This document shows, piece after piece, positions 1 to 6,000 of a DNA stretch of 64,000 nt. Source of the DNA: Escherichia coli (lineage in GTDB: Bacteria > Pseudomonadota > Gammaproteobacteria > Enterobacterales > Enterobacteriaceae); NCBI RefSeq assembly GCF_003991155.1, contig NZ_CP031295.1. One strand, 5' to 3'. Made by a program: the position numbers. Each line of letters begins with the position of its first letter. The first letter of the stretch is position 1.

Positions 1-3000
1 CAACTTCTTGGTACAGAAATCCCGAAAATTACATGGGAAAAGATTGAGAGAAGTTTAACAGATGTTGAAGATGAAAAAACACTTCTTGTCCCATTTAAAG
101 CTGAAGGTCCGGAGGGTAAGAGAATGTATTATGGCATGTACCATTGTGAAGAGGGATATGTTGAATATGCGAATGACTAATACACTGTTATAAAGGCTGC
201 ATAAAAAGGCCGGAATCCCGGCCCTTATATTATCGCTTACCACTTTCTTTAATGTGAATTTCACCAGGAAGCAGTATCTGGTACTCTTTACCAGAAAACA
301 TCGCCCCGAGCCTTGTGAGCGACTCTCCGATGACGCCACGGTGAGTGCTGGCGTTAAAATCGTATTTATCATCATATGAACGAACAACGCCATTGTAAGT
401 CCAGGAGCCATTGGCAGAGATAGTTAAAGTACCTTCTGTTTTCAGTGTGATATTACCAAGATATGCACCGGTAATAACATTATAATCACCAGTGGCATGT
501 GTGAACTTTGTAGAAACAGGGAATGTACCTACTACACCAGATTTTATAATGTCTTTTATCTGATTAATTTTCATAGGGGAAATTTTAAGACCAATGTTGG
601 CGATATTAACGCTCCTTTCAGCGCCATTACCCCATAAATAGTGAGCAAGCGCCACAATTGGTGTAGTGACATTACCGCTCATTTGTTTCATATTCATTGA
701 GCGATAGTCATATTGACTTGGCGCTGGTTTTGAGAAGTGGTAAGCGTCATAAACGCTTATTCCAGGGTGAAGAACCAGATTTCGGTCGGCGTTACAGAAG
801 TAACCAATATTTGTCGATATGATCTGCAATGTGAGAGGGTTGCTAGCCCCATGTTTTTTGATGTAATCCTCAAGTTGAGTTAAAGCCTGAAGACACATGT
901 TTGGACTCTGGAAAAAACTATAAACAACCTGGACTAAAAGAGGTCCAGCACCAGGAACATGCGGTGCTGAAAGAGAAAATGCACCATTGCCATAACTTGG
1001 TAAGTTAGTTGATGGTGATGGTGCATGAACAGTTAAGGTTTCCATACATAACTCCTTATAAGTTAATAAGATAATAGAGTTCGCGGCTGGCTAACGCTTA
1101 CACCGGCGAACGAACCCCATGAGAGAGGCTCCCCATAACATTGTTTGCCGGATATGCCGTTAAAAATGGTAGGGAAGCACCTGAACTACCATATATAAGA
1201 TATATATCTGTACACTCCATTAAATACTGGAAATATATTGAGAACTCTGATATATAATCTATATATAAAAATACAAAAAGGTATATATATGACCAGCAAT
1301 AAAGATAAGAACAAGAAAGCAAACGAAATATTATATGCATTTTCCATAATCGGTATTATTCCATTAATGGCTATATTAATACTTCGGATAAATAATCCAT
1401 ATTCTCAAGTGCTGTACTACTTATATAATAAGGTTGCATTTCTCCCTTCTATTACATCATTGCATGATCCCGTCATGACAGCACTTATGTCAAACTACAA
1501 CAAGACAGCACCAGTTATGGGTATTCTCGTTTTTCTTTGCACATATAAGACAAGAGAAATCATAAAGCCAGTAACAAGAAAACTTGTTGTGCAATCCTGT
1601 TTCTGGGGGGCCGTTTTTTATGCCATTCTGATTTATATCACACTGTTCTATAATCTGGAACTAACAACAGCAGGTGGTTTTTTTAAATTATTATCTCATA
1701 ATGTCATCACTCTTTTTATTTTATACTGCTCCATTTACTTTACTGTTTTAACCATGACATATGCGATTTTACTGATGCCATTGCTTGTCATTAAATATTT
1801 TAAAGGGAGGCAGTAACACTGCCTTCCTTTTAATTATTTTATGATCTTGTGATTCAACTCATCAACAAATTTATCATCGATAAATGCACCAATAGCACCT
1901 GCAATAACTACGCCAACAAAACCAACAACTGTGGCCGGAAGACCAAAGGCTATAAGGGCCGAGCCTAATGTCAAAGAAAACAAACTAAGAGCTACAGCAG
2001 CTGGTTACGAACTTAATGGCCAGACTATTTATGTATTGCTCCTGTGGCACACACGAGAAAACAGGTAGATTGTGTGTGGGGACAACTTAACATAGCCTGC
2101 AGATATTAATTCTGGAACATTATTATCAGGCCAGATATTTTGCATTCCATTAAATAATCTTGTAGGAGATAAAATGAATTACGATGAAATAACGAAAATT
2201 ACCGCTGAACGTATTAGCGACTACATGACTGAAGCAGTTAATACAGACTCTATAGCCGTTGCGGAAATGTTTCATAACGCTGCATGGGGAGTGCGAACAT
2301 TGTGGTTTGAACTCGTCACAAAAATAGATATAGATATACATAAAAAGAACAGGTATGCGAGTTATGATCTTAGAAGGAAAATCGAAATGCAGCATGAAGA
2401 GTTTCAGAAAATGACAGAGCGTGAGCAAGTACCTTTATTGAAATCGCCAGAATGATGTTCAGCGACTTCGCCCAGGTATTTTCTTTCGCCCCTTTTATGC
2501 CCTGCCGGACATTGTATAAATGTAGGGCGGGCCGCTTGGAATTCGGAAAATAAACCACGTTAAGACTATTTTTTAGTCAAATGACTTTCAGGAATCGCCA
2601 GAATGGCGGGACAACAGCGGTTTTGGTGTCCGAAATCGTACAATTCTGAACATCTACGCAAGGGAATGTACGGAAGTAAGCCAAATGGTTATCGGACGGT
2701 AGGAGCATTTCGTACATCCTTTACGTTCAGTGAGTTAGCTGGCTTGGATGTAACCACTCGTTCAACTCAATTCTCTTGACGTGGGGAAATCCGTTTTCCA
2801 AGCGGACCCCTTATAGGGGGTGAGGGCCCCCTCCCCTTCACTCTTGACTATGTGAACGATAATCATTATCGTTAGTGTTTGTATGGTAATGGGATAGAAA
2901 GTAATGGGATAAAAAGTAATGGATAGAAAAAGAACAAAATTAGAGTTGTTATTTGCATTTATAATAAATGCCACCGCAATATATATTGCATTAGCTATAT

Positions 3001-6000
3001 ATGATTGTGTTTTTAGAGGAAAGGACTTTTTATCCATGCATACATTTTGCTTCTCTATATTAATGTCTGCAATATGTTACTTTGTTGGTGATAATTATTA
3101 TTCAATATCCGATAAGATAAAAAGGAGATCATATGAGAACTCTGACTCTAAATGAATTAGATTCTGTTTCTGGTGGTGCTTCAGGGCGTGATATTGCGAT
3201 GGCTATAGGAACACTATCCGGACAATTTGTTGCAGGAGGAATTGGAGCAGCTGCTGGGGGTGTGGCTGGAGGTGCAATATATGACTATGCATCCACTCAC
3301 AAACCTAATCCTGCAATGTCTCCATCCGGTTGGTAATGACTCCAACTTATTGATAGTGTTTTATGTTCAGATAATGCCCGATGACTTTGTCATGCAGCTC
3401 CACCGATTTTGAAAACGACAGCGACTTCCGTCCCAGCCGTGCCAGGTGCTGCCTCAGATTCAGGTTATGCCGCTCAATTCGCTGCGTATATCGCTTGCTG
3501 ATTACGTGCAGCTTTCCCTTCAGGCGGGATTCATACAGCGGCCAGCCATCCGTCATCCATATCACCACGTCAAAGGGTGACAGCAGGCTCATAAGACGCC
3601 CCAGCGTCGCCATAGTGCGTTCACCGAATACGTGCGCAACAACCGTCTTCCGGAGCCTGTCATACGCGTAAAACAGCCAGCGCTGGCGCGATTTAGCCCC
3701 GACGTATCCCCACTGTTCGTCCATTTCCGCGCAGACGATGACGTCACTGCCCGGCTGTATGCGCGAGGTTACCGACTGCGGCCTGAGTTTTTTAAATGGC
3801 GGAAAATCGTGTTGAGGCCAACGCCCATAATGCGGGCGGTTGCCCGGCATCCAACGCCATTCATGGCCATATCAATGATTTTCTGGTGCGTACCGGGTTG
3901 AGAAGCGGTGTAAGTGAACTGCAGTTGCCATGTTTTACGGCAATGAGAGCAGAGATAGCGCTGATGTCCGGCGGTGCTTTTGCCGTTACGCACCACTCCG
4001 TCAGTAGCTGAACAGGAGGGACAGCTGATAGAAACAGAAGCCACTGGAGCACCTCAAAAACACCATCATACACTAAATCAGTAAGTTGGCAGCATCACCA
4101 GAAGGTCTTATCCTCTTTCATCTGATGAGGTATTAATTCCTTTTTCCCCACATGCAAGATGTTTTTTTCCGGATAAAACTAATAAATTATCAATTATAAA
4201 TAAACAAAATATTATCAATGCAACATGGAAAATAGCCAGAAAAAAACAAAATTGTATTATAAAGGAATCTTTTTCACCTAAATTTGAAAAAACTCGCCGA
4301 AATGAAATCCAGAGATTTATCAGGAATGGCGGAGAGATTAAGTGTATAAGCCAGTTATCCGATAAAGAAATATCCAGCTCTTATATATCACTTTTTCATT
4401 CCCGGTTTGGAGGTACCCTACCTTGCTACGAATATGATAATCTGTTAATGTTTATTTCTCACTTACGAGAACTTATGTTTGGCCATGTGCTATTCTGGGA
4501 TAATAAACCGTGTGCTATTGATATAGTACTGAAATCTGAAAGCTCATGTAATGTTTATTATGACGTTCCAAATGGTGCAGTTCTGAATGATGAGAATTGC
4601 ATGAAACTAAGTCCGGGAAGTGTCCTTATGTGGCTGAATATAGATAAAGCGCGAAGGTATTGTCAGGATAATAATAAAAAGATGATATATTCTATCGGTG
4701 CATTCAGACCTGAATGGAAATATAAACTACTATGGTCTGTTCCCTGTAAGGTTGGTAAATGCTTATGTTAGAATATGTATAAAGGTAAGTAACTATATAA
4801 GAGCGTCCAGTCTGCAAATACTCCTCTAAACATGGAGGAGTAGATTTATAATATCATAACATTTACTAAATCGTTTTACATTAATTTCAAATTTGAAATT
4901 AATGTATTTTGATAACTATATATTTTTGATTCCGAAAACAGACATTTCTTTCTTTGAGTCAGGGCTTACACTCAAAATATTAATATTGTTTGTGTGAAGA
5001 CATATTATTCAATAACGATGGTGAGAAATATCTGTACTTTTTCGCATAATCTAACCATTTACTTAATTGTTCATTCTGTGAACAGAATCTGTTTGTTATG
5101 TATCAGGTTGATGATGTGATTAAGCAGTCTGAAACCAGAGGAATATGGAGTCAGAAATTTTCAGTTGTCTTTTAAGGGCGTCTGCAGGATTTTTTCTCCG
5201 TTTCTGCCTGTCCTGGCATTACCCCAATTCTCCCAAAAACGGTAAACCAGCCCTCAGCCCGCACCATGACTGGCTTAAGACGGGATCCCAGCGGCAAAAT
5301 GCGCCTTTATGTATTTGGTTTTACCCGCAATAATGCGTGATAATCAAACAAAAGGATCCGCGCGCTGCGATTTATTGTCGTGGAAGGATCCGGGCGTTCA
5401 GGTCAGAATACCTGTATCCATAAACAGTGCGTGTGCTACGTGAAAAATAACTCATGAACAATGTCATTCCCCTGCAGAATTCACCTGAACGCGTCTCCCT
5501 GTTACCCATTGCGCCGGGGGTGGATTTTGCAACAGCGCTCTCCCTGAGAAGAATGGCCACTTCCACGGGGGCCACACCGGCCTACCTGCTGGCCCCGGAA
5601 GTGAGTGCCCTTCTCTTCTATATGCCGGATCAGCGTCACCATATGCTGTTCGCCACCCTCTGGAATACCGGAATGCGTATTGGCGAAGCCCGGATGCTGA
5701 CGCCGGAATCATTTGACCTGAATGGAGTAAGACCGTTTGTGCGGATCCTGTCCGAAAAAGTGCGTGCGCGACGCGGACGCCCGCCAAAAGATGAAGTGCG
5801 CCTGGTTCCGCTGACAGATATAAGCTATGTCAGGCAGATGGAAAGCTGGATGATCACCACCCGGCCCCGTCGTCGTGAACCATTATGGGCCGTGACCGAC
5901 GAAACCATGCGCAACTGGCTGAAGCAGGCTGTCAGACGGGCCGAAGCTGACGGAGTACACTTTTCGATTCCGGTCACACCACACACCTTCCGGCACAGCT

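Follow-up and report, generated by a model that had tools for sequence, protein, structure and literature searches.

A truncated colicin V operon with an intact immunity gene beside IS1 on an IncF virulence plasmid of Escherichia coli

Remnants of the colicin V (microcin V) operon have been described before. A passage of PMC6795089, which cites Christenson and Gordon 2009, places such a remnant beside a truncated colicin B gene on colicin B and M (ColBM) plasmids. A survey from 2019 reported one isolate in which the colicin M gene is contiguous with a truncated cvaC, while cvaA and cvaB are absent genome-wide (PMC6723558). More generally, a study from 2025 counted orphan immunity genes on 243 plasmids, those on 53 of them being for microcins; it found heavily truncated toxin genes, with the same truncation recurring across different plasmids, and read this state as being immune without producing (PMC12546727). 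The locus described here is a colicin V (ColV) locus of this kind. It lies in 64,000 nucleotides of E. coli contig NZ_CP031295.1 (RefSeq assembly GCF_003991155.1), a stretch called the window hereafter and numbered from its first letter, and belongs to an IncF virulence plasmid with a RepFIB-type replication gene. The immunity gene cvi is followed by the beginning of the toxin gene cvaC, which is cut short by a copy of the insertion sequence (IS) IS1.

The locus is very probably a decayed colicin V operon in which an IS1-associated deletion removed the distal part, while the promoter and cvi were kept, and its host would be an immune non-producer. The comparisons that carry this reading were made with plasmid p94EC-1, which has the same gene module with an intact operon, and with a classic avian ColV plasmid. 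Among the parts of the production system of microcin V, a class IIa microcin, the iron-regulated (Fur) promoter is present in the window as sequence, and cvi lies directly 5' of cvaC and overlaps it. The full-length cvaC precursor is reduced to residues 1-66, and the dedicated exporter, composed of the peptidase-containing ABC transporter CvaB and the membrane fusion protein CvaA, is found neither in the window nor in pCREC-544_1, the closest complete plasmid. With intact immunity and an inactivated toxin, cvi has the features of an orphan immunity gene, the replicon-wide part of this assignment having been made through pCREC-544_1.

Immunity gene, promoter and cvaC stub

The cvi product is 100% identical to Cvi of the intact-operon plasmid p94EC-1 (WP_014640552.1) and differs from that of classic ColV plasmids by a single residue, I47 versus A47. 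A scan with the NCBIfam hidden Markov models gave no match for Cvi, CvaC, Cma, Cbi or the Cba remnant, and Pfam has no family for Cvi. Because no model of either collection matches, the assignment of cvi rests on its 100% identity to annotated proteins. In a three-way DNA alignment the promoter, the ribosome-binding context and cvi itself are base-identical to p94EC-1.

The promoter-like site upstream of cvi (Table 1) is overlapped in its -10 hexamer by a Fur-box-like palindrome. Segment 2852..2870 shares 16 of its 19 bp with the Fur consensus, where chance would give 0.02 such matches per window. One further match to the consensus was found in the 64 kb, where the aerobactin (iuc) genes begin, and there were no others. 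The aerobactin promoter is a classic Fur-regulated promoter, so this second match serves as a good internal control. Fur control of the cvi promoter itself is stated in a passage of PMC7772137, citing Boyer and Tai 1998.

Two further elements surround the promoter and the start of cvi. A G+C-rich near-palindrome (CCCCTTATAGGGGGTGAGGGCCCCCTCCCC, 2807..2838) lies directly 5' of the promoter, and classic ColV plasmids keep it in slightly altered form. The cvi leader holds three tandem copies of a 15-bp repeat (GTAATGGGATAGAAA); copies 1 and 2 form mini open reading frames (ORFs) composed of ATG-GGA-stop, and copy 3 is one G shorter. The repeats are kept in classic ColV and hybrid plasmids, and a role in translation control is possible.

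The cvaC ORF begins with MRTLTLNELDSVSGG, the double-glycine leader of colicin V, and ends with ...AMSPSGW-stop. An AGGAG ribosome-binding site precedes it at 3124..3128 and the 23-nt overlap with the end of cvi is preserved. Residues 1-66 of the encoded CvaC are 100% identical to the full-length 103-aa precursor. The Pfam profile MccV (PF17508) matches the stub over its positions 1-68 of 104 and no further. At the DNA level, homology to intact loci stops at 3331: TCCGGTT is followed there by TAGG in the intact genes and by GGTAATGA, the terminus of IS1, in the window. Codon 67 is built from the T at 3331 and the GG of the IS1 terminus and encodes Trp; the TAA stop at 3334..3336 lies within IS1. 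The NCBI Prokaryotic Genome Annotation Pipeline (PGAP) labels an identical sequence 'colicin V, incomplete, missing C-terminus', that is, a cvaC pseudogene.

A sequence-only reading of this DNA had proposed that cvi is intact, that the Fur-box promoter is retained and that cvaC ends at codon 67 with a Trp and a stop supplied by IS1. The first two proposals are confirmed, by a 78-aa product equal to p94EC-1 Cvi and by the 16/19 consensus match with its perfect 8-1-8 core at 2856..2872. The third stands with a correction. Alignment of 3133..3336 to full-length cvaC is identical through codon 66 and ends at base 3331, so that the native codons number 66 and codon 67 is a hybrid Trp codon.

The IS1 scar and the search for the export genes

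The IS1 element joins codon 67 of cvaC at its left end and codon 78 of mig-14 at its right end. Its 9-bp flanks differ (CATCCGGTT versus AGAAGGTCT) and show no target duplication. Since the duplication is missing and the right flank is mig-14, the scar is explained by an IS1-associated deletion and not by a simple insertion; a complete IS1, flanks that lack a duplication and flanks that were ancestrally non-adjacent are all found together here. Had the element simply inserted, the rest of cvaC and cvaAB would be expected just beyond it or elsewhere, and excision or recombination could restore production. The one point in favour of such an event is that the IS1 is a complete copy. This account is hardly credible and was rejected, on the strength of the missing target duplication, of the mig-14 flank and of the lack of 3' cvaC, cvaA and cvaB in the window and in pCREC-544_1.

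Comparison with two other plasmids locates what was lost. Positions 1..3331 of the window (3,331 bp) are 99.97% identical to p94EC-1, which then continues in cvaC, whereas the window continues in IS1. A Shigella flexneri plasmid from STEFF_24 (NZ_CP055168.1) matches the window at 100% to the left and to the right of IS1 and retains ompT, hlyF and the whole of mig-14 after the element. Relative to this plasmid the window misses exactly 3,224 bp counted from the IS1 end, a stretch with ompT, hlyF and the beginning of mig-14. The IS1/mig-14 join is found in few database records and recurs in pCREC-544_1. The three genes lost or broken on this side are ColV-plasmid markers.

These relationships suggest a path with two steps. 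The ancestor would have been a ColBM/ColV hybrid with the order cmi-cma-cbi-(cba remnant)-cvi-cvaC-cvaB-cvaA, which is still intact in, for example, p94EC-1. A first IS1-associated deletion would have taken away the final 37 cvaC codons, cvaB, cvaA and DNA beyond them. A second deletion, later and rarer, starts from the opposite terminus of this IS1 and took ompT and hlyF together with codons 1-77 of mig-14.

The sequence-only reading had found cvaA and cvaB absent from the window and had named an intact cvaC-cvaAB elsewhere on the same plasmid as a finding that would overturn it. A tblastn search with CvaA, CvaB and full CvaC of p94EC-1 bears out the absence, as no cvaA, cvaB or 3' cvaC was detected in the 64-kb window. 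The lone CvaB match there has 28% identity, reflects generic ABC-ATPase similarity and falls on the gene at the sitB position. No database record is identical to the window over its full length, and for the rest of the replicon pCREC-544_1, which has the same joins, was searched as a proxy for the plasmid of the window. This plasmid of 122.9 kb is collinear with the whole window, with an identity of 99.9% in the first 22 kb, of 99.1% up to about 51.5 kb and of 95-96% in the distal transfer region. The entire pCREC-544_1 holds no cvaA, cvaB or second cvaC, and an intact operon is thus found neither in the window nor in this relative.

The missing part of cvaC is the part that recognizes target cells. 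The domain of microcin V that binds the receptor Cir comprises the C-terminal 32 residues of the protein (precursor residues 72-103), the sole part resolved in the complex with Cir (PMC12511343; PDB 9NN6), and a sequence search showed that chain B of PDB 9NN6 corresponds to precursor residues 72-103. The native sequence of the stub ends at residue 66 and is without the whole Cir-binding domain and without both cysteines (C91 and C102 of the precursor). The leader is cleaved off by a peptidase that is part of CvaB (PMC10233263). As this peptidase and exporter is absent, the stub would keep its leader and would not leave the cell, and even if it were secreted by a promiscuous chromosomal exporter it would be unable to enter targets via Cir. 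The earlier judgement, which held activity of the product to be unlikely, is strengthened by the loss of the Cir-binding domain and the cysteines and by the absence of the exporter and leader peptidase.

It appears from these features that no active, importable colicin V is made. Gilson et al. reportedly found in 1987 that cvi alone confers immunity. Following this established knowledge, cvi would still be expressed under iron limitation and would protect the host from colicin V released by neighbouring producers. An immune non-producer is the most likely phenotype, with immunity probably retained. Table 1 lists the features of the locus and of its surroundings.

Table 1. Features of the colicin V locus and the adjoining region, in window coordinates
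Feature	Position	Strand	Description and basis
cma, colicin M gene, intact	230..1045	-	sequence comparison
cbi, colicin B immunity gene, intact	1289..1816	+	adjoins the cba remnant
cba, colicin B gene remnant	1834..2000	-	last 55 of 511 codons; PGAP 'colicin-B, incomplete, missing N-terminus'
Two short IncF backbone blocks	2004..2524 and 2529..2777		between the cba remnant and the ColV block
Sole ColV-operon-derived DNA in the window	2754..3331	+	578 bp, 98.4% identical to classic ColV plasmid (blastn)
cvi-cvaC promoter-like site	2844..2872	+	-35 TTGACT, 17-nt spacer, -10 TATCGT; predicted from sequence
Fur-box-like palindrome	2852..2870; perfect 8-1-8 core 2856..2872	+	consensus match
Three tandem 15-bp repeats in the cvi leader	2886..2929	+	third copy holds the cvi start codon
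cvi, colicin V (microcin V) immunity gene, intact	2919..3155	+	78 aa; sequence identity
cvaC, truncated	3133..3336	+	67 aa; double-glycine leader (15 aa) and mature residues 1-51, followed by Trp and stop from IS1
IS1, complete (IS1B-like)	3332..4099	-	768 bp, terminal inverted repeats, transposase on minus strand, transposase model match
mig-14 fragment	4100..4771 (ORF 4448..4771)		right of IS1; first 77 codons missing; PGAP 'Mig-14, incomplete'

Recurrence of the truncation and retention of cvi

The cvaC::IS1 junction is widespread. Since IS1 matches everywhere, PLSDB records were counted when they covered at least 80% of a junction-spanning query. PLSDB holds at least 138 plasmids with the identical junction, among them pSMS35_130 (NC_010488.1, strain SMS-3-5), pCREC-544_1 and pMUB-MIN11-1, and 131 of the 5,426 complete E. 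coli genomes share it. These numbers bear on the possibility that the truncation is mimicked by a mis-join of the assembly at a repeated IS1. The window holds three copies of the element and such repeats are classic points of mis-assembly, but an artefact would have to arise identically in all these independently sequenced plasmids and in the complete genomes for the left junction, and again in pCREC-544_1 for the right one. It was rejected, its probability being practically negligible.

Truncation of cvaC extends well beyond this junction. The 5' part of cvaC is found in 615 PLSDB plasmids and is uninterrupted across the breakpoint region in 362 of these 615; full cvaB-cvaA is present in 379. 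About 40-41% of the plasmids with a cvaC start have no uninterrupted gene, and presence/absence calls therefore overestimate ColV producers. 'ColV-positive' typing accepts any one of cvi, cvaA, cvaB and cvaC (PMC6807379). Plasmids of the lineage of the window would score cvi/cvaC-positive in such gene-presence screens yet are predicted to be unable to make colicin V. The main use of the present analysis is one of annotation hygiene: the presence of cvi or cvaC does not imply colicin V production.

A sampling of truncated plasmids revealed three more independent IS events, each followed by iroN and each with cvi whole. In pH2291-144 (NC_025139.1) an IS1 in the opposite orientation interrupts cvaC at codon 24, in CP099022.1 an IS1 does so at codon 53, and in p1108-IncFIB (NZ_MG825378.1), which belongs to the classic ColV lineage, an IS3 lies at codon 6.

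Retention of cvi could be without consequence. Cvi and the stub would then be neutral debris, unselected leftovers that spread with the plasmid for other reasons such as aerobactin, sit or resistance genes. Pseudogenes, among them what is left of the colicin B gene, occur in the same module, and the junction is clonal, its sequence being identical in all carriers, which fits hitch-hiking on a successful backbone. On the other side, at least four independent IS events (codons 6, 24, 53 and 67) all spare cvi, and cvi and its promoter are undegraded when compared to intact operons. The survey of orphan immunity genes also argues for maintenance (PMC12546727). None of these three points is decisive; the neutral account is considered unlikely, though it deserves to be taken seriously. 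The recurrent pattern of cvi sparing fits selection for immunity with concomitant shedding of production, although the places at which the IS elements sit may account for it neutrally.

The stub itself might instead be functional. It could be secreted by a promiscuous chromosomal class II microcin exporter and then damage the inner membrane of its own producer, with cvi as an antidote in an addiction-like arrangement, or serve as a recombination module for chimeric microcins. The stub retains an undamaged ribosome-binding site, start codon, leader and double-glycine site, and it is predicted to be co-transcribed with cvi. Promiscuity has been described for class II microcin exporters (PMC10233263), and receptor binding maps to the last 32 residues, apart from the N-terminal part (PMC12511343), both of which speak in favour of a functional stub. 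The plasmid, as judged from the window and pCREC-544_1, is however without an exporter, and other lineages keep cvi next to 5-23 complete cvaC codons, so that the stub is not required for retention of cvi. A function of the stub is accordingly held to be highly improbable.

A related proposal is that 'cheater' immunity is selected on virulence plasmids of the extraintestinal pathogenic E. coli (ExPEC) type, with a minor variant in which the stub acts as addiction partner of cvi through an MchEF-type exporter or as donor for chimeric microcins. It is given very little credence. Its selection part has already been proposed for orphan immunity genes generally, and just the variant with a function for the stub would be new.

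Several considerations weigh against the reading of the locus as a decayed operon that leaves its host immune and non-producing. Both immunity and non-production are deduced from DNA sequence. Elsewhere in the cell, on the remaining replicon or on the chromosome, there may be another ColV operon or an exporter of related type, for example MchEF. The mechanistic label given to the scar is likewise a deduction, as intramolecular IS1 transposition and homologous recombination between two IS1 copies would leave the same scar. The retention of cvi could be neutral and set by where the deletions stopped, and the searches were anchored on cvi, which biases them toward cases that retain it. The decayed operon with retained promoter and cvi is still strongly preferred. 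The repeated loss of the toxin with retention of immunity is a clean natural example for the debate on the origin of orphan immunity, in which loss of a toxin and gain of an immunity gene are the two alternatives.

The hybrid module and its relation to known systems

The truncated locus is part of a larger colicin module that starts before the window, whose first position cuts off the colicin M immunity gene. The order cmi-cma-cbi, the 3' remnant of cba and the microcin V sequence, whose block begins at 2754, together identify a ColBM/ColV hybrid. The two IncF blocks that lie between the colicin B and colicin V parts (2004..2777) are the recombination seam of the hybrid. The first of them is found next to a RelE/ParE toxin gene in other plasmids and holds a 93-aa ORF (2174..2455), hypothetical in other records. 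At least 80% of window segment 1200..2780 is covered by 290 PLSDB records. The plasmid probably still makes colicin M. The module holds two orphan immunity genes, cbi and cvi.

Two observations concern the plasmid beyond this module. The three IS1 copies of the window (3332..4099, 9370..10137 and 25620..26387) are 98.6-98.8% identical to each other; copies 2 and 3 are inverted and flank sitABCD, a major facilitator superfamily (MFS) transporter gene and iucABCD-iutA in an arrangement that resembles a composite transposon. The distal transfer region (52687..64000) has 95-96% identity to pCREC-544_1, versus 99-99.9% for the first ~52 kb, a pattern which indicates a mosaic backbone with putative recombination inside the tra operon.

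When set against the known systems, the window carries the same module as the ColBM plasmids with a microcin V remnant, composed of cmi, cma, cbi, the 3' cba remnant, cvi and part of cvaC. There is no substantive difference in the cvi-cvaC locus; the window adds the deletion of ompT, hlyF and 5' mig-14. Relative to the intact four-gene ColV operon of p94EC-1 and of the classic avian ColV plasmid, the promoter, the Fur-like site, cvi and cvaC codons 1-66 are 98.4-100% identical, while cvaC codons 67-103, cvaB and cvaA are missing. The orphan immunity genes of PMC12546727 likewise stand beside truncated toxin genes, with the same truncation on many plasmids, though what that survey describes is a category, not one particular locus. 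Plasmids pH2291-144, CP099022.1 and p1108-IncFIB reached the same outcome, with cvi kept and 3' cvaC, cvaB and cvaA lost. Their alleles differ from the one described here in breakpoint, in IS orientation or type and in the right flank, which is iroN instead of ompT or mig-14, and they are regarded as independent events because of these differences. The cvaC::IS1 scar is real but ordinary: it is common, annotated and already described.

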